Positions 2,271-20,720 of a stretch of DNA of 20,720 nucleotides are shown in pieces. Location: the NCBI GenBank assembly GCA_044356455.1, contig JBIKWF010000078.1, positions 1 through 20,720 of the forward strand. Reading direction: 5' to 3'. The position numbers and the translations under genes were made by a program. Source of the stretch: Bdellovibrionota bacterium. Its GTDB lineage: Bacteria > Bdellovibrionota_C > UBA2361 > JBGSMV01. The notes below the pieces were generated by a model. That model had not been told where the DNA came from. It was given only the letters and a program-made list of their open reading frames with translations, and did not search any database. Every line of letters begins with the position of its first letter. The first letter of the stretch is position 1.

Positions 2271-2780
2271 ATGACGACTCTTCTTTCAAAATCTCCTCGC
2301 GAAGCGACACAGGTTGTGCCGCGTCATCTCCCCACGCGTGCCTGCTCTGGGGAGAAGGGCTTCTCAGTAATAGAGCTCATTGTCGTCTTGGGCTTTGCTC
2401 TCCTCATAGGTGGCATCGCCATCCTCAATTTAAAAGCATTCGACGACCCTCTACTGAACGGCTCGGCCCAGCTTGCAAGCTTTTTTAAGCAAGTGCGCGC
2501 AAAAGCTATCAGTAGCACCTCTGCCTATATCATCTCCCCGGACGGCTCGAGCGGCGTGCAAACCCAGAGAGGGACAACCTGCGCAGATGCCAGTCCCGTT
2601 GATGACCCGCTTGCGTCCTTGACGCTGCCGTCGGGAGCGTATCTTTTCGATACCTCCTGGAGTTTCTGTTTTAACTCTCGCGGCCTCCCCGATGCCAATA
2701 TTGAAATTGAACTTCGCGACGTAGGGGGAGCAAACCGAATTGTTGAAGTTCTCTTAGGAGGGGCTGTGCGCATTCAATGA
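2271..2780 (+). CDS. Type IV minor pilin/pseudopilin, FimT/FimU/GspH-like
   Basis: Class III signal EKG|FSVIELIVV with Glu at +5, a hydrophobic helix, and a C-terminal FNSRG motif typical of GspH/FimT. Confidence 0.85.
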   Translation: MTTLLSKSPREATQVVPRHLPTRACSGEKGFSVIELIVVLGFALLIGGIAILNLKAFDDPLLNGSAQLASFFKQVRAKAISSTSAYIISPDGSSGVQTQRGTTCADASPVDDPLASLTLPSGAYLFDTSWSFCFNSRGLPDANIEIELRDVGGANRIVEVLLGGAVRIQ

Positions 2781-3172
2781 GAACTCTGCGTATCAACCAT
2801 CGCAATGCCGGCTTCACCCTTATCGAGACACTGGTGTCTTTGCTCATCTTCTCGCTTGTCACCGCTGCCATGATGCCAGCGTTTATGTCTCAGCTTAAGT
2901 ATTCTCACCAATCCAAAGTCAAGACAGGAGCCCTATCGGCGGCGCAGCAAGCCCTTGATGCGGTACGAGTAGTCAACCCAGAGACACTACCAACCGGTGG
3001 AGCAACCACGACTTCGACCATCACTGCTGGTGATTACACGTATTCGGTGGTTCTCACGTACTGCAATCCAGACACGTATTGCTCAACAAGGTCGCGGTTT
3101 ATTACCGCTGAGGTAAGTTATCAAGGAACAGAGCTTTATGAAGTTTCAACGGTCTTTACTCGCTTGCGGTAG
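2777..3172 (+). CDS. Type IV minor pilin, PilV/GspI-like
   Basis: NAG|FTLIETLVS prepilin motif; 131 aa; ATGA overlap with the upstream gene. Confidence 0.85.
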   Translation: MRTLRINHRNAGFTLIETLVSLLIFSLVTAAMMPAFMSQLKYSHQSKVKTGALSAAQQALDAVRVVNPETLPTGGATTTSTITAGDYTYSVVLTYCNPDTYCSTRSRFITAEVSYQGTELYEVSTVFTRLR

Positions 3173-4064
3173 CCAGAAATCCGCTGCGGGATTTACCGTG
3201 GTTGAGTTTCTTGTTGCCTCATTCATTGGCCTTCTCGTCATGGCGCTGGCCATGTCGTCAACGTTAAGCGGAAGAAGCCTCTACCGCGAAGATGTCGTGC
3301 GCACGCGTATACAACAGAACCTTCGCAGTGCGATTGACCTTATTACTCTCAACGCGAGGCAAGCAGGAGAAAGTTTCGAGTCGACCTTTCCCGCAATTCT
3401 TATCTCCAACGGCAGTGGTTCGAACTCTGATGAACTCGTGCTTAGGCGCAACCTTTTTGAAAACGAGGTCCTCAATATCTGCCAAGACCTTACCGCCGGA
3501 GCGGTCAATACCGAAATCGTTACCTCGAACGATCCCGCCAACCTGAACGCGAACTGCAGATATACGGCGGGTTGGCAGACGTTTCTCATGACTACCTGGC
3601 GCAATTACCGGACCGCGCAAGGAGGCACCGTACGCGCATTCGCATTCAACCGCTCGACGCGTGCCGGAGAATTCTTCCCCTATAGCGGCGAAGTGGATTC
3701 AGGCTCTCAGCTTCGTGTGCAACGCTCCAGTGGTTCATGGACAAACAACTACACCGGAGACGGAGTGAGTGCCGCTTTCTATCTCGCGGAGGAATTTAGA
3801 TACCGCCTGTCGTCGGGCGTTCTCCAACTCGTGGTGAACGATGACGCAAGTTCTGCGCTCAACGTGGTTGATGGCATCACAGATTTTCAAGTTCTTGCCC
3901 ACATGGAAGACGGGACAACCAAGACCGCTCTCGCAGCTACGGACGAATGGACAGAAGTGGTCTCGCTTGAGATTAGCGTCTCAGGTTCCGAGACCATTGG
4001 GGGGAAAACAATAGCCGACACCCTTACGACACAGGTATTTGCGAGAAATATTCTTTCTCACTGA
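3138..4064 (+). CDS. Type IV minor pilin, PilW/GspJ-like
   Basis: AAG|FTVVEFLVA prepilin motif; QQNLRSAIDLI...RQAG helix typical of PilW; third position in the operon. Confidence 0.85.
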   Translation: MKFQRSLLACGSQKSAAGFTVVEFLVASFIGLLVMALAMSSTLSGRSLYREDVVRTRIQQNLRSAIDLITLNARQAGESFESTFPAILISNGSGSNSDELVLRRNLFENEVLNICQDLTAGAVNTEIVTSNDPANLNANCRYTAGWQTFLMTTWRNYRTAQGGTVRAFAFNRSTRAGEFFPYSGEVDSGSQLRVQRSSGSWTNNYTGDGVSAAFYLAEEFRYRLSSGVLQLVVNDDASSALNVVDGITDFQVLAHMEDGTTKTALAATDEWTEVVSLEISVSGSETIGGKTIADTLTTQVFARNILSH

Positions 4065-4073
4065 GGACGCACT

Positions 4074-5996
4074 ATGGACACTATCAGCTCTCTCCTGCGA
4101 ACACCTCCCTCACGAAACCGGGCCAACCAAGGGTTCGCCCTCATTTCGATGTTTCTCATGCTCGCTGCGATGAGTGCGCTTCTTGGAGCATACCTTGTCA
4201 TTACCCGGGTTGAACTTGCTACTTCAAAGTCGTCCAAAGATAGCATGTCTGGCTTCTACGCCGCCGAAGCAGGACTTAATATTCGTGCGGAAACGATTCG
4301 CTCCATCTTCATCGGATATAACAGTCCTTCGGGGACCTCTCCTTCTACCGCAACGACCCCCTGCTCAACCGGAAACCTGGGGACAGGAGACATGGCCTGC
4401 GCCACCTACACCTTTAACAATCGCTCCATTCCAACCTATGTTATCGATCATCAGCCGGGTACCGACCCACCCCTCATTCCCATTCGGCAGGGTGAACTTT
4501 ACCAGGGGCTAAACGCACAGGAGTACGTCTACACGGCTGACGCGCAAGCACTTGCAAACGACGGACGCACCGAAGCGATTCTGCAACTTCGCTTCAAGAG
4601 TCGCTTGGTTCCCCTTTTCCAGTTCGCAGTATTTTACGACAAAGACCTCGAGATCTTGCCAGGACCAGCCATGACCTTGAGCGGACCTGTGCACACCAAC
4701 GGGGACCTCTATCTTCAGTCCGATAACGTTCTCACCGTGAACGGACAAGTAAGCTCGACAGGTACGATCTATAGAGGGCGCAAGAATGACGCCACGTGCC
4801 GCAGCAATTCCGCCCGCGTTTTTGACCCTTCTTCCGCTAGGCATCTTGTCCCCTCCTGCTCCTCGCGAACCACGGTAAACGCAAGTCACATTTCTGCCTT
4901 CAATGGGATGATTAAATACGGAGTAGATTCCGTTACGGTGCCTCCTCCCAAAGCCCTGGACCCCACGCCCGGCGCCGTATACTGGGACAAAGCCGATTTG
5001 CGAATTGTTCTCAAAGTCGACGGAAGCTACAACCCGATTGTAAATGTTGCGGGAGTGACCACTGGCATAGAAGTGCGAAATGCAGATAATACAATAAATT
5101 CTGCGGCTACTTCTGCCCTTTTCAACTGCTCCGCGGCTCAAGCCAACAACGTTCGCACCATTCGAAGAAATCCAGCCGGGGGCGACAACAGCATGGCAGT
5201 GGTTGGCACAAGCTACAGCTTCCAGAATCGCCGAGAGAATAGGCGGATTCGAATGCTGGACGTTGATGTGCGGGGGCTCTTTAACTGCCTTCATAGCACA
5301 AGCTGGCTCGGCATCTCAGGAAGAGCGCTCAACGACAGCACTGAAGGCGGCCTCGTATTCTTTCTCACGGTTGATGGGCCAAACGGCACTACCAACACGA
5401 GCCCCTACGGAGTCCGCATCCGAAACGGCGCAACCCTTCAAAGTAATATAGGAGGTGCCGCAACTGTTCGTGGACTTACGGTAGTTTCAGACCAGGCCGT
5501 CTACGTTCAAGGCGATTATAACACCACACCCAAAATTCCGGCAGCGGTTCTCGCTGACTCCTTTAACCCTCTGTCGAATTACTTCTACGACGCAGGAGCT
5601 CAGAACTTTAGAGATGCGTCGACCCTTTTGAACGTGAGCTCTCGCCCTGCAACGAGCACGATTCAAAATACGGCAGTCATGGCAGGAACTGATACCACGG
5701 GCGGGCAAGAAGGCAGCGCAGGCCAAGGGGGTGCTTATAACGGAGGACTCGAAAACTACCCGCGTTTCCACGAGGACTGGACGGGAGATACCTATACGTA
5801 CCGCGGCTCCTTCGTAAGTCTCAACAGGCCGCGCCGCGTAAGTGGAGCTTGGGTGTATGGCAACCCGCAGTACACGGCACCAAACCGCAACTGGGACTAC
5901 GACACCTCATTCAACAACGCGGCAAATTTGCCACCCATTACGCCACGCTTCGTATACCTAAGGCAGGAACTCTTTGTGCGCGACTTTGATCAGTAA
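4074..5996 (+). CDS. Large PilX/GspK-like pilin with an extended beta-rich C-terminal region
   Basis: NQG|FALISMFLML lacks Glu+5, as in PilX/GspK; GFYAAEAGL PilX N-terminal motif; GPVHTNGDL; C-terminal GGLENYPRFHEDW...APNRNWDYD. Confidence 0.8.
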   Translation: MDTISSLLRTPPSRNRANQGFALISMFLMLAAMSALLGAYLVITRVELATSKSSKDSMSGFYAAEAGLNIRAETIRSIFIGYNSPSGTSPSTATTPCSTGNLGTGDMACATYTFNNRSIPTYVIDHQPGTDPPLIPIRQGELYQGLNAQEYVYTADAQALANDGRTEAILQLRFKSRLVPLFQFAVFYDKDLEILPGPAMTLSGPVHTNGDLYLQSDNVLTVNGQVSSTGTIYRGRKNDATCRSNSARVFDPSSARHLVPSCSSRTTVNASHISAFNGMIKYGVDSVTVPPPKALDPTPGAVYWDKADLRIVLKVDGSYNPIVNVAGVTTGIEVRNADNTINSAATSALFNCSAAQANNVRTIRRNPAGGDNSMAVVGTSYSFQNRRENRRIRMLDVDVRGLFNCLHSTSWLGISGRALNDSTEGGLVFFLTVDGPNGTTNTSPYGVRIRNGATLQSNIGGAATVRGLTVVSDQAVYVQGDYNTTPKIPAAVLADSFNPLSNYFYDAGAQNFRDASTLLNVSSRPATSTIQNTAVMAGTDTTGGQEGSAGQGGAYNGGLENYPRFHEDWTGDTYTYRGSFVSLNRPRRVSGAWVYGNPQYTAPNRNWDYDTSFNNAANLPPITPRFVYLRQELFVRDFDQ

Positions 5997-15961: not shown

Positions 15962-17142
15962 TGAGGGCACTCCTCTGCCACTACGACGCCACTTCGCAGG
16001 TAACGCCGAGGAATACGCAGATTAAGATCGGTGAGAACCTCGTATGGAATTGTTCCTGCATGCGCCGCAAGATCCTCTACCGTGACTTTTTCACCCCCTT
16101 GGGAGCCCACGAGAACAACCTCGTCCCCATTGTAGGCTTCTCCCTTACCGAGTGAGACCATTATCTGGTCCATACATACTCGGCCAACTACCGGATAACG
16201 TTTCCCGTGGATTATCACTTCTGCTTTATTAGAAAGCGCCCGCGAATACCCATCGCCGTAGCCCACAGGCACCGTGACTACGCGTGAATCCTCTTTGGCA
16301 AACCATGTCCTTCCATAGCTCACGCTTTCTCCTGCACGAACCACCTTAAAATAGACTACCCGTGAAGAGACTTTCATCACCGGTTTAACCAGCTTAGCAA
16401 CCGCAGAGTTAAGGTGCTCGGAGGGAGAGACTCCAAAAAGAGAAATGCCGCAGCGCACCATGTCCAGATGGCTCTCGGGAAGCTGCAAAAGGGCGCCAGA
16501 ATTCGCCGCGTGTCGTAAGGGAAGAGGCTTACCCTTTTCCTGGAAATAAGAGAGGCAGTCGGTAAAGTCTTTTAGTTGCTTACGCGTAAAGGTGAGATCC
16601 TCTTCATCTGCCGTGGCGAAATGTGTAAATACCCCCACAAGATCGCAGTGCGCCGAGGCGTGGGCCGCCTCAAATACGGCAGGAGCCGAAGAAGGACGCA
16701 CGCCAATTCTCCCCATACCGGTATCAATCTTTATGTGAATCCGGGCCCTCTTCCCCAAAGCCTTGGCCGCGCCTTCTATGAGACCGAGCTTTTCAACGGA
16801 AGAGGCGGTGAGATCTAAGTCATGCTCAAGATAGATACCAACTTGGTCAGTAAAAATCCCCCCGAATATTAGAATCGGTGCTTTGATTCCTGCTTGGCGA
16901 AGCCGCACGCCCTCTTCAACAAGAGCTACCCCGAAGTAATCAACTCCACTTTCACGTTCCAGTGCCCGGGCACATTCGATGAGACCATGCCCGTAGGCGT
17001 TTGCCTTCACTACGGCCATAACTTTTGACTGCCCTGCGCGCCTCTTCAGTGCTCGGTAGTTTTCCACCAAGACTCCGAGATCAATCTCCATGAACGTCGG
17101 CCGAAGGGGCACTCGCGAGCTTTCCATTCCGTTAGGCTCCAA
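15958..17142 (-). CDS. alr: Alanine racemase; start may be ATG 17127
   Basis: AVVKANAYGHG (PLP lysine), KIDTGMGRIG, THFATAD, ANS, VSYG, GYGDG, GRVCMDQ, TIPYE. Confidence 0.97.
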   Translation of the reverse strand: MEPNGMESSRVPLRPTFMEIDLGVLVENYRALKRRAGQSKVMAVVKANAYGHGLIECARALERESGVDYFGVALVEEGVRLRQAGIKAPILIFGGIFTDQVGIYLEHDLDLTASSVEKLGLIEGAAKALGKRARIHIKIDTGMGRIGVRPSSAPAVFEAAHASAHCDLVGVFTHFATADEEDLTFTRKQLKDFTDCLSYFQEKGKPLPLRHAANSGALLQLPESHLDMVRCGISLFGVSPSEHLNSAVAKLVKPVMKVSSRVVYFKVVRAGESVSYGRTWFAKEDSRVVTVPVGYGDGYSRALSNKAEVIIHGKRYPVVGRVCMDQIMVSLGKGEAYNGDEVVLVGSQGGEKVTVEDLAAHAGTIPYEVLTDLNLRIPRRYLRSGVVVAEECPQ

Positions 17143-17254
17143 CTTTCACCACTAGATATTCACCTTTCTGAACATTTCCCTTTTGGTCAAACTTCGAAAG
17201 CATTCGAATAGGGCCCTCGCAGAGTACCATTTTGACTACCCGAGCCGGAAGCCC

Positions 17255-18523
17255 TTACCCTGCGTAGGAAAGTCGCAGGACCCGCTTCATTTCAGCGAGC
17301 GTGGAGTCAGGCACAATAAGCTTTGCGGCGGGCGATTGCAGCTTTTGCAAAGCCTCTCTCAAAACGGGTCCATATTTTGCCTTTAGCTTTTGTTTCTTTT
17401 GGCCCTCCAGCAAGTTGTCAATCGCCAGAGCATTCTCAGAGAAATCGGCCATTTTAATTGCAAATGCTTCTACGTCTGCTTCGTATATCTCGAAGAAATG
17501 TTCCTTGTAGAGAACATTTTTTATATCGCTTGCGCTTCGAGCGTCCCCTGCTTCCTTAAGCCTCGCTGCTTCCGCATCAAAATCAGGATTGGTAAGGAGC
17601 CCAACGAGACTGCGCACTTTTTTCCCGAATCTCCCCTCCAGCGCATCGAGAGCTTTTGTCTGAAGGTTGCCCTCCACGGCGAGAGCGCCCCCAAGAATGC
17701 CCACAAGAGTTACCGCTTGATCCTCCACGGTATCGTGCAGGAAGGCCGCACAGATGGCAAAGGGATCCCGGATTCCAAATTTCTCGATGGCTGCTATTGC
17801 CACTCGCAAAGGATGATTCACGTACGGCTCACCGTCGGGACGCGGCTCCTGATACGCATGCAATGCAAGCATGAGCTCAAGAGCGCCATCAATTCTCTCG
17901 CGATGCGAAGCGTCCAAGGAAAGCTGATCGAGTAAGAGAGTAAAGCGGTTTATGAGATGCGGAGAAGCGTTTCGCTGCCCCTCAGCACGGCGCTCAGAAT
18001 AGTCCTCGGAGATACTTGCTCCAACCAAGTTCGCGCCGCCTACACGCACTGACCTATCGATAGTCGCCGCGCTTTCGCCATTAAATCTCTCAAAATCCTC
18101 GCGCGAATTGAACCATATCGCTGTCCAATAGCGAGTTTCCCCTGCGGCCCTGAGCGCGGCATAGCGATGATTCCCATCCGCAAGGCCGAGCTCTCCGTCC
18201 TTGTACTCGGCCACCAGCGGTGGGACCTTCAGCCCCTGCCGCAACTTTGAAGCTAGGTTTTCGACACGCGCTTTCCACCCGTCTTCTTCTTCATGGAATT
18301 TGAGTCCCGGCCCACAGAGCGGGATAAGGGAATTAAGCTCAACCTCCTGAGGAGCTATCCACCAACGACGGGCAAGCTTAAGCCCATCGGCAAGAGCAAG
18401 GTTATTCCCCGGCCCTCGCAGATACGCATCTAACCACGCGTCAAAGGTCCCCCGGCCACCTCGCTCGAGCGCTTCTTCTAATGAAAAGGATAGTGGAAGC
18501 GCGGCCGCATGGACTTGTGACAT
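17255..18523 (-). CDS. Fusion of a ParB/Srx-like N-terminal domain and a RelA/SpoT-type (Mesh1/SAH-like) HD domain
   Basis: N-terminal VPPLVAEY...LADGNHRYAAL; C-terminal H..Q..RPDGEPYVNHPLRVA...AAFLHDTVED...LT...IKMADFSEN. Confidence 0.8.
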   Translation of the reverse strand: MSQVHAAALPLSFSLEEALERGGRGTFDAWLDAYLRGPGNNLALADGLKLARRWWIAPQEVELNSLIPLCGPGLKFHEEEDGWKARVENLASKLRQGLKVPPLVAEYKDGELGLADGNHRYAALRAAGETRYWTAIWFNSREDFERFNGESAATIDRSVRVGGANLVGASISEDYSERRAEGQRNASPHLINRFTLLLDQLSLDASHRERIDGALELMLALHAYQEPRPDGEPYVNHPLRVAIAAIEKFGIRDPFAICAAFLHDTVEDQAVTLVGILGGALAVEGNLQTKALDALEGRFGKKVRSLVGLLTNPDFDAEAARLKEAGDARSASDIKNVLYKEHFFEIYEADVEAFAIKMADFSENALAIDNLLEGQKKQKLKAKYGPVLREALQKLQSPAAKLIVPDSTLAEMKRVLRLSYAG

Positions 18524-18547
18524 TTCTATCCTCTTCCTAAGCGAATA

Positions 18548-18919
18548 CTAAATCGAATCGGACAGGTATTCATCGTTTGCGACCCAACGTGGGGTGCTAA
18601 TTACACAAAGTCGATTCTTTTCCGAAGACTGCGTGATCTGATGATGAATACCCTTCGTAATAAAGCATAGCTCATTGGCCTGCAATTGACGCTCCTCTCG
18701 TCTTCCACTTGAGGGATCGAACGTCTTAAGAGTCACCACACCATCGAGTACCAAATAAATTTCATCAAGCGTTTTATGAAAGTGTGCTTTGGTAGGATGG
18801 ATATCAATCGCTACTGCGAGATCAAGTGTCGGATGTTCTCCGCCGGACAAAATTTCTCGAATCTGACCGCAGGTGTCAGTTTCAATAATCTTATGGTCCT
18901 TATTCAGTTTAACTTTCAC
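18548..18919 (-). CDS. Cupin domain protein
   Basis: AHFHKTLDEIYLVLDG and ITKGIHHQI metal-binding cupin motifs; CGQIREI N-terminus. Confidence 0.88.
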   Translation of the reverse strand: MKVKLNKDHKIIETDTCGQIREILSGGEHPTLDLAVAIDIHPTKAHFHKTLDEIYLVLDGVVTLKTFDPSSGRREERQLQANELCFITKGIHHQITQSSEKNRLCVISTPRWVANDEYLSDSI

Positions 18920-18934
18920 AAAATATCACGGGCG

Positions 18935-18987
18935 TAATAACGGCATAAAGCCAGCGGCCGAAGGTCCGTTGGGCATGATTGTTATTT
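18935..18987 (-). mobile_element. attC site 3 (53 bp), ending the ORF6N cassette
   Basis: Minus strand: R'' AAATAAC, left arm GCC[C]AACGG[A]C, short loop, right arm GCCGCTGGC, R' GTTATTA. Extra C and A are in the left arm. Confidence 0.75.
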
Positions 18988-19146
18988 CCTGAACATACGC
19001 CCACCAATAAAGTAAGCAACTTTTGAAAGAATTCTCCGAATAGTCTTGGGCACTTTGTTAGACACGAGGCGAGAGAAACGACATTTGGAAGAGACGACGG
19101 AGCCGGGCTTGTTGATTTAGCAACACTTAAGGAAGCAATACTAATA

Positions 19147-19632
19147 GTGAGAGGACGGCGAGTTATTATTGATGCCGACTTAGCCGCTCTCTACGGAGTT
19201 AAGACAAAGCGACTCAAGGAGCAAGTAAAAAGAAACATCGAGAGGTTTCCCCATGATTTCATGTTTGAGATGACCTCGAAAGAAGTCGAAAAGGTGGTCG
19301 CAGATTGCGACCACCTCAGAAAATTGAAGTTTTCCAGCGTATTACCTCTGGCTTTTACCGAGCATGGCGCAGTAATGGCAGCGAATGTGCTTAGCAGTCG
19401 CCTCGCCATCGAAGCCAGTATCATGGTCGTCCGCGCATTCATTCATGCGCGCGAAATTGTATCAGAGCACTTCGAGCTTAAGCGGCGCCTCGAGATTCTC
19501 GAGATGAAAGTTGCGCGAGGGTTTGAAGATAACGAAGACGAGCTGAATGCAATCCGCCTTGCGTTACAGCAACTTATGATGCCGATTGATATAGCTCCGA
19601 AGAAGCCGATCGGGTTCGGTCGAGGAAAATAA
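19147..19632 (+). CDS. ORF6N domain protein (phage antirepressor-like DNA-binding); 5' end possibly frameshifted
   Basis: RGRRVIIDADLAALYGVKTKRLKEQVKRNIERFPHDFMFEM...PLAFTEHGAVMAANVLSS..AI; C-terminal KPIGF. Confidence 0.9.
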   Translation: MRGRRVIIDADLAALYGVKTKRLKEQVKRNIERFPHDFMFEMTSKEVEKVVADCDHLRKLKFSSVLPLAFTEHGAVMAANVLSSRLAIEASIMVVRAFIHAREIVSEHFELKRRLEILEMKVARGFEDNEDELNAIRLALQQLMMPIDIAPKKPIGFGRGK

Positions 19633-19724
19633 CGGCCGAATTCTGCAGGAATGGGCGCTCGTAATCAGTTCGAATCACCACCAGTACGCGCGCACCCGTT
19701 CTCGGCCGGAATTGTTTGTTATCC
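19627..19724 (-). mobile_element. attC site 2 (98 bp), ending the GNAT cassette
   Basis: Minus strand: R'' GGATAAC containing the GNAT stop, left arm AATTC[C]GGCCG[A]GAACGGGTGC, right arm GCGCCCATTCCTGCAGAATT, R' GTTATTT. Confidence 0.85.
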
Positions 19725-20315
19725 GCCCACCTTTTCGCCGTAGGGGATCTGGGGTGCATCGTCAATGCTATAGAAGCCGGTGAATCGCCAATCCCTAAAT
19801 TCACCTACGCTAGTCTTAAACTTTGTGAATCCAGCATTCTCGTAAAATGCTAAGGCCTTCGGATGATCCATGCCGCAAGTGCTCAGCCACATTCGTTCGA
19901 CTTCAGTGTTCCATGCTAAATGGATGATGTTCTGAAGAAACCTACGCCCTATCCCTTGGTGTAGAAGGCTCGGTATTAATCCGAAGTGAACCAGTTCAAT
20001 ATCTTTCCCATTCGTAGCATCCAACTCTGCCATCCCGACAACTGCGCTTCCTTCATAAAGAAAATACATCCGCGTAGTCGGGGCCTTTAGAATTTGCTCT
20101 ATCTCATCGGTGCTTTGTCCACCTCTGTAGTTCCAAAGATAGTCCCTCCCTACTGCCTTGTAGACGTCGAGGTAAGAGGCGACGTCGATATTGCTGACCC
20201 TCCGAAGTTGGAACGGTTCCAGGTTCGCCGGCTCAGCGCTCGGGCCTGAAGTCATCTCGAGGTAAATAACTTCACTGCGGATAATTGGAACAGTAAGAGC
20301 GTTTGTTTTGTTCAT
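19719..20315 (-). CDS. GNAT N-acetyltransferase carried as an integron cassette; start revised to ATG 20315
   Basis: YLEM, Y..VGRDYLW, VGMAEL, HFGLIP...QGIGR, WLSTCGMDHPKALAFYENAGF. The ORF-track extension to 20435 only reads through attC1. Confidence 0.88.
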   Translation of the reverse strand: MNKTNALTVPIIRSEVIYLEMTSGPSAEPANLEPFQLRRVSNIDVASYLDVYKAVGRDYLWNYRGGQSTDEIEQILKAPTTRMYFLYEGSAVVGMAELDATNGKDIELVHFGLIPSLLHQGIGRRFLQNIIHLAWNTEVERMWLSTCGMDHPKALAFYENAGFTKFKTSVGEFRDWRFTGFYSIDDAPQIPYGEKVGG

Positions 20316-20338
20316 ATCGTGGCCATGTTCCGCTAGGC

Positions 20339-20400
20339 GGATAACGGCTATGAGCACCGGTGCGACCGCAGGGAGCATCCGCTGGCTCAATTTGTTCTCC
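20339..20400 (-). mobile_element. attC site 1 (62 bp), upstream of the GNAT cassette
   Basis: Minus strand: R'' GGAGAAC, left arm TGAGC[C]AGCGG[A]TGC, right arm GCACCGGTGCTCA, R' GTTATCC. Confidence 0.8.
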
Positions 20401-20473
20401 TCCGTGGTTCTAACTTTGGTGTGGTTTCTAAGCAACCTCTCTGCCGATTTGTCGATTAGGGTTAGAAGGGTTA

Positions 20474-20584
20474 GGAGTCTGTCCCGTAGAAAATTCCGAC
20501 CACTACATGTTGTGGTGGCAGCGGGACAGCCTACCTACGGATTGTGTCCAAAATGAAGATCTATGTTTCTACGGGACACACTCC
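20474..20584. mobile_element. MITE-like element, 111 bp
   Basis: Terminal inverted repeats GGAGTCTGTCCCGTAGAAA (20474-20492) and TTTCTACGGGACACACTCC (20566-20584) match at 18 of 19; TA on both sides (20472-73, 20585-86); too short to encode a transposase. Confidence 0.7.
20500..20547. promoter_or_regulatory. Tandem NrdR-box-like sites
   Basis: CCACTACATGTTGTGG (20500-20515) matches all strongly conserved positions of acaCwAtATaTwGtgt; the weaker TACCTACGGATTGTGT (20532-20547) starts 32 bp later. Confidence 0.5.
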
Positions 20585-20720
20585 TAGGTCGCGGAGACAC
20601 GGAGACCGCGGAGTGTTCGCCTGCAAATTTGTAACTTTCTAGGTGTTACCAGGATTTTGTTTGCGAATGTTCAGGATTACTAGCAATTATGCTAAGGCAC
20701 AGAGCTGAGCAAAATCTCGA

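Follow-up and report, generated by a model that had tools for sequence, protein, structure and literature searches.

A three-site attC array without an integrase in a Bdellovibrionota genome, and the multi-copy cassette with which it begins

The origin of small clusters of attC sites that lack an integron integrase (CALINs) is treated as an open question, with four routes given, by Cury et al. (2016, PMC4889954). Insertion at genomic G-W-T (attG) sites has been published, and small CALINs have been proposed to result from genomic insertion by a distant integrase (Loot et al., bioRxiv 10.1101/2022.09.11.507474). One contig of a Bdellovibrionota bacterium raises the same question: three hairpins lie near its end with small genes between them. 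Are they integron attC sites and, if so, how was the array assembled? The window analysed here is this entire contig of 20,720 bases (C39 of a 4.70-Mb, 216-contig genome, G000). It ends at position 20720 inside a repeat, 320 bases past the first attC site. Features are collected in Table 1.

Table 1. Features of the cassette array and its distal flank (positions in the window)
Feature	Position	Strand	Description
3' part of cassette X	20345..20720	-	about 90 bases of X start missing; contig ends inside X
24-bp inverted repeat and non-coding interior of X	20590..20720		other X copies have an inverted GxxExxY nuclease gene here
MITE nested in X	20472..20587		116 bp; 4-bp target duplication; 195 blast hits
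attC1	20339..20400	-	62 bp; attC of cassette X; crossover G at 20345
GNAT cassette	19633..20344	-	712 bp; start complements its own R'' (10/10)
GNAT acetyltransferase gene	19719..20315	-	198 aa; PF00583, E 1.8e-11; stop codon inside R'' of attC2
attC2	19627..19724	-	98 bp; crossover G at 19633; differs from its relatives at one L-box position
ORF6N cassette	18941..19632	-	692 bp; gene inverted; start complements its own R'' (7/7)
ORF6N-domain gene	19147..19632	+	PF10543, E 3.6e-27; start uncertain; stop codon inside R' of attC2
Bipartite promoter-like motif	19014..19039	+	precedes the inverted ORF6N gene; putative function
attC3	18935..18987	-	53 bp; 12-nt centre; 7-nt spacer; crossover G at 18941
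Cupin gene	18548..18919	-	distal flank; no attC after the gene

The three imperfect palindromes with AAC...GTT boxes that a preliminary description had placed on the minus strand were recovered at the same positions by a structural scanner, which gave exactly three matches at a score of at least 11 in the window. All three share one anatomy on that strand: R'', 5 nt, L'' with an extra C, then L', 6 or 7 nt and R', with an extra A and AAC/GTT boxes; the L'-R' spacer of attC3 is 7 nt, not 6. The extra C and extra A, described beforehand and seen in every site, correspond on the top strand to the two extrahelical bases of the bottom strand. On five plasmid integron loci the scanner recovered 11 attC-like matches, missed others (with none in L010) and returned false matches. 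Because perfect REP-like palindromes swamped this first scan, a weight-matrix-plus-pairing scan took its place, with 28 non-own sites as training data. The window's three sites score 60.9, 55.3 and 41.0 in the trained scan, and the genome holds 20 sites at 34 or above against none in each of three block shuffles. When 5-nt spacers were allowed, 13 sites reached 40 or above against none in shuffled sequence, with the window sites at 55.9, 55.1 and 41.1.

With 18 foreign attC sites as its training set, a covariance model matches attC2 (18.3 bits, E 0.0025) and attC1 (14.1 bits, E 0.035) over their full lengths at the exact coordinates; for attC3 the match has the exact length but lies within noise (6.6 bits, E 3.7). 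Across the whole genome the model gave no match at E<=1 among the 150 of 1083 candidates scored, which is not taken as absence. Folding energy alone is no better for the three sites than for shuffles (z -0.46, -1.20 and -1.23). The probability of the recombinogenic bottom-strand fold is 0.69 for attC1, 0.002 for attC2 and 0.53 for attC3, with three plasmid controls at 0.03-0.40; attC2 therefore looks decayed. Reported attC sites span 56/57-141 bp (PMC5371416), a range that includes attC1 and attC2. The third site had rightly been called very short, and because its 53 bp fall under that range it is treated here as an attC-like short variant; a 52-bp sister site resembling it, with a decayed R', occurs on C212. 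Sites like attC2 are found on C127 and in genomes G014 and G015. The earlier suggestion that three dissimilar sites imply different donors is thus only partly right, since each attC type recurs within this genome or its order.

The weak fold z-scores, in a genome rich in perfect palindromes, are what could still be said for reading the hairpins as terminators or REP-like repeats in a fixed gene order. That reading is largely refuted and hardly credible now: 18400-20720 contains no terminator-like site (shuffle mean 2.4), and the asymmetry of the hairpins, with both extra bases, lies on one strand. A search of 16000-20720 against Rfam gave no match. Fixed gene order in relatives, together with a lack of covariance hits, had been named in advance as the outcome that would count against an array. 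That outcome did not occur: the covariance model matched attC1 and attC2, the GNAT and ORF6N genes occur elsewhere as cassettes with differing neighbours, and the region has no DNA match in the four genomes of the family. We read all three hairpins as integron attC sites that belong to a small array with no integrase on its contig.

Both cassettes between these sites have the ends and sizes given for them beforehand (Table 1). The GNAT gene is single-copy in the assembly and has homologues in 15 of 123 other genomes of the class. Its orthologues are 60-64% identical, with neighbours that vary throughout, and in 3 of 12 loci a 56-bp attC follows directly after the stop codon. The ORF6N cassette, which has five more homologues of its gene in the genome, likewise shows what defines a gene cassette: a start complementary to R'', one gene and variable neighbours. 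An inverted ORF6N gene with its stop in R' also lies near intI in G009 and in a two-cassette array of G001, a congener. The motif before the inverted gene reads AAGCAACTTT-N12-CCGA and has 38 matches in the genome, against 4, 4 and 1 in shuffles; it stands upstream of inverted cassette genes, of X copies and of a family of short repeated genes. It is reminiscent of a sigma-28-type promoter, and its function as a promoter is putative. About 20 flagellin-like loci are present in the genome (C169, C52, C100 and others). Beyond the array, the cupin gene was found in one of 40 relatives, in a different context. The gene at 17255-18523 on the minus strand encodes 422 aa, with an HD (RelA/SpoT hydrolase-like) domain at the C-terminus and an N-terminal half that has no assignment, and four pilin- or pseudopilin-like genes are clustered at 2271-5996 on the plus strand, the last being a 640-aa gene without a Pfam match.

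With three attC sites and no intI anywhere on the contig, as was expected for the window, the array is, as far as the contig extends, a CALIN. In the window it lacks the adjoining intI and attI of a complete integron, an arrangement that is present on C92. There, an open 377-aa frame matches TIGR02249 at 428.8 bits (cut-off 265), the only such match in the genome, and the catalytic residues of integron integrases are recognisable in it; upstream of the gene lie an attI and three attC sites. Integrases above the same cut-off occur in 12 of 40 relatives too. The preliminary description had offered either a CALIN or the tail of a chromosomal integron, and had expected intI beyond 20720. The first alternative holds. 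The second is unlikely and the expectation is not supported, as the contig ends at that point in a repeat and the one intact IntI of the genome stands beside an attI of its own, with another cassette in first place. The window array could still be the tail of the C92 integron, split from it by the assembler at the X repeat, an artefact of draft assemblies of which PMC4889954 warns; the contig does end inside X, and the C92 array reaches to 125 bases from the end of its contig. We regard this as quite improbable, because the C92 end is not X and does not overlap the window contig, and because X has 18 left junctions outside arrays on 18 contigs, several of them behind housekeeping genes.

Everything from attC1 to the contig end is repeat, and the repeat is cassette X. 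In order, the full unit comprises a G/TT start, a segment of 58 bases, an inverted-repeat element, in some copies a MITE, then a spacer and attC1; its start is a 10-base complement of its own R'' region. The genome contains 22 X starts and 16 attC ends, in 37 fragments in all; these counts exclude five weaker or truncated start matches and one truncated end. Summed contig depth on the repeat is about 300 against 8.5 and does not amount to a copy number. The GxxExxY gene of the inverted-repeat element is intact on C216 (TIGR04256, 140 bits) and frameshifted on C138. Many copies lack the MITE, of which a longer form of about 270 bp exists, and contigs that skip it with a 4-base overlap were found in all four lake runs compared. 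At three of the 16 ends (C1, C44 and C180) the attC of X stands behind a different upstream sequence. Two X ends inverted around one inverted-repeat element at C127:45558-46164 reflect an inversion or a misassembly. Further families of perfect palindromic repeats, of 67 and 78 bp, lie on many contigs and resemble the inverted repeats around GxxExxY genes in this genome and its relatives.

X homology stops exactly at the G/TT crossover at both ends. Per-column conservation at the 22 starts is 27-64% before the G and 86-100% after it (one dimorphic column has 50%); at the 16 ends the values are 75-100% as far as the G and 31-56% beyond the TT. These junction positions lend indirect support to recombination of the window's attC sites by IntI. 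They also bear on the idea that X spreads by its own transposition, as a nested MITE or a GxxExxY inverted-repeat element with the attC merely carried along. X does contain a MITE with 195 hits and a nuclease gene between inverted repeats, and a copy on C169 (30042-30420), with a truncated attC, sits inside a direct repeat of about 52 bases. Transposition is nevertheless very improbable, as X ends at the attC crossover rather than at the ends of either nested element, no target duplication flanks the complete copy on C138 and many copies carry no MITE.

The sites at which X begins are of three kinds: four starts lie behind copies of the integron platform, another four behind an attC and the remaining 14 behind other DNA. 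In the last group the sequence just before the G is AT-rich and often lies close behind genes such as atpC and folC. The base before the G is A or T in 12 of the 14 (p 0.004), or 13 of 14 after correction of a one-base misregister on C53. The G-W-T core is also present: GTT stands at 11 of the 14 X starts outside attI and attC, and TT follows all 13 non-tandem ends, in 12 of them after G. The top strand is G-rich in 15 of 18 left-junction contigs (p 0.008) and in 11 of 14 right-junction contigs (p 0.06). This orientation is the one reported for sedentary integrons (PMC5371416), though part of it could stem from gene-strand bias. Upstream of X, C4 and C18 are 72-76% identical over 76-106 bases, and a TCAATA-rich end before G/TT is common to C4, C18, C177 and C123. 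The C4 and C18 flanks possibly represent a second family of docking modules; the other 12 of the 14 non-platform flanks have no extended similarity among them.

The platform itself, an attI and promoter region of about 210 bases on C92, has copies without intI on C40, C173 and C99 and a weaker one on C196. The four are 71-84% identical to the C92 platform, and X comes first in all of them. The C173 copy (C173:145-440) lies behind a tgt-secDF operon and retains a remnant of intI, about 60 bases from the 5' end, that breaks off at a MITE half. In the congener G001 intI abuts tgt, which suggests that C173 may be an older, possibly ancestral, integron locus. A platform travelling as a cassette from a GTT upstream of intI was considered; it fits C40 and C99 but not C173, which keeps intI sequence beyond that GTT. 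An attC-like stretch after the intI stop was scored in no scan, and a supposed second platform in G001 proved to be a partial match without attI. A palindrome, GGTATT-N2-AATACC, with two half-sites lies upstream of intI (L120:1700-1790 on C92; L099:1350-1440) and recurs in the platform copies and in G001; it is a candidate repressor (LexA-like) box.

These platforms admit another history, in which the array is a relic of a duplicated whole integron that lost intI and the docking sites are decayed attI platforms instead of attG sites. The intI remnant on C173 and the tgt neighbourhood in G001 are in keeping with it, as are the C4/C18 similarity as a possible second platform family and C99, a candidate partner of the window contig. 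We consider it unlikely, since beyond the C173 piece no intI remnant was found by tblastn or blastn and most non-platform flanks (12 of 14) are dissimilar; it would, moreover, alter the origin of the docking sites and not the loading of X in trans. The end of the window contig has five near-exact overlaps with other contigs, one being a platform copy, and no exact overlap, so the docking site of the window array may be either a platform copy or an attG-like site. A partner search by synteny of the alanine racemase gene, which is present in one of four family genomes, gave no join.

Taken together, the attC anatomy, the complementary ends, the C92 integron, the four platforms without intI and the G/TT junctions of X lead us to the view that the window probably holds a satellite array without integrase, in the order X, GNAT and inverted ORF6N, built in trans by the single IntI at scattered docking sites. 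The C92 IntI would excise cassettes as circles through folded bottom-strand attC sites and would insert them at a G/TT, either in a platform copy or in a secondary (attG-like) site rich in A and T. New cassettes would enter in front, and X is therefore likely the newest in the window array. Replicative resolution is established integron biology. It would let one cassette multiply, and this would account for X at 18 or more sites. A bolder version is doubtful as a whole, although it deserves statement: X may be a selfish cassette without a recombinase of its own, copied by the host IntI to 20 or more sites and first at every orphan attI, with a GxxExxY nuclease that favours its spread or retention; it might found or cap satellite arrays, and sites of 52-53 bp could be working attC below the reported minimum.

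Relatives and lake contigs provide context for this array. In G001 X is absent at all three loci compared, with no X homology and no attC at E<0.5 near atpC, speA and secF, and that genome is too distant for base-level comparison. It does have a single-copy GxxExxY cassette, which heads the two-cassette array with ORF6N at a different locus far from intI. G002 has a GxxExxY-homologous cassette with an X-like attC and a following start. Among the GxxExxY loci scanned in relatives such an attC occurs in 3 of 21 (two on the same G002 contig), so most GxxExxY genes there showed no such site. Five lake runs contain half or more of the stretch, and run X1 may be its source. Individual contigs, one in each case, depart from the window in several ways. 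In run X1 a GNAT variant is joined to a different attC-like end, and in run X4 the attC of X continues, from its crossover G, into DNA that in this genome lies behind the third attC on C92; such alternative junctions may come from sister strains. The attC3 loop is interrupted in run X3 by an insertion, at least 946 bases long and with a 3-base overlap, whose end resembles IS3-family ends in the genome. A strain in run X6 that matches the window at about 96% identity across the cupin gene departs from it at 18934, six bases from the crossover, and for this reason the distal end is not a clean empty-site remainder. The contigs of six runs, which show presence only, contained no excision joint, circle or cassette-skipping joint. 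Two loose-end sequences of lake contigs are absent from the assembly, pattern scans for the cupin start and X start in JGI metagenomes, where very similar records may be missing, found no match, and no RNA datasets with the stretch are listed among the runs.

At the level of the window this is mostly known biology and a three-site CALIN is ordinary; the new part is the multi-copy cassette at the level of the genome. The array resembles the CALIN/SALIN and attG cases of Cury et al. (2016, PMC4889954) and Loot et al. (bioRxiv 10.1101/2022.09.11.507474) in having at least two attC sites with no intI on the contig, and in X junctions with a G-W-T core. The attG insertions described there are laboratory assays, with natural cases as isolated sites, whereas here one natural cassette stands at 18 or more sites with both junction types. 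Xanthomonas chromosomal integrons (bioRxiv 10.1101/2025.06.18.660453) are alike in one intI locus with distant CALINs and a recurring 'empty' cassette. As described in that preprint, their CALINs occupy seven loci that different species have in common, and the copies of the empty cassette belong to one and the same array; here the congener shares none of the three loci compared, and X repeats across loci, four with attI platform copies. The attI-duplicated or delta-attI cassettes of mobile integrons (PMC12901181) are similar in that attI copies can recombine away from their canonical place. Those copies are described within mobile arrays, in contrast to the whole platforms of about 210 bp on separate contigs here. 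The GxxExxY family (TIGR04256/PF13366) includes the X payload, which is over the cut-off and is here an inverted cassette gene between inverted repeats. Literature searches outside subscription journals and supplements turned up no single cassette at about 20 chromosomal loci, although supplements may include natural multi-copy cases, and no paper pairing 'GxxExxY' with 'integron' was found. The 18 or more sites marked by one cassette in one chromosome would be natural targets for integration in trans or at attG; the same genome has an intact IntI and attI copies that stand apart from it, and lake populations contain variants of the junctions. X is also a candidate for transposon-like spread. 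A different kind of array was observed in a Pseudomonadota MAG (L077:59-6356), in which at least 14 homogeneous attC sites of 112-116 bp lie beside intI.
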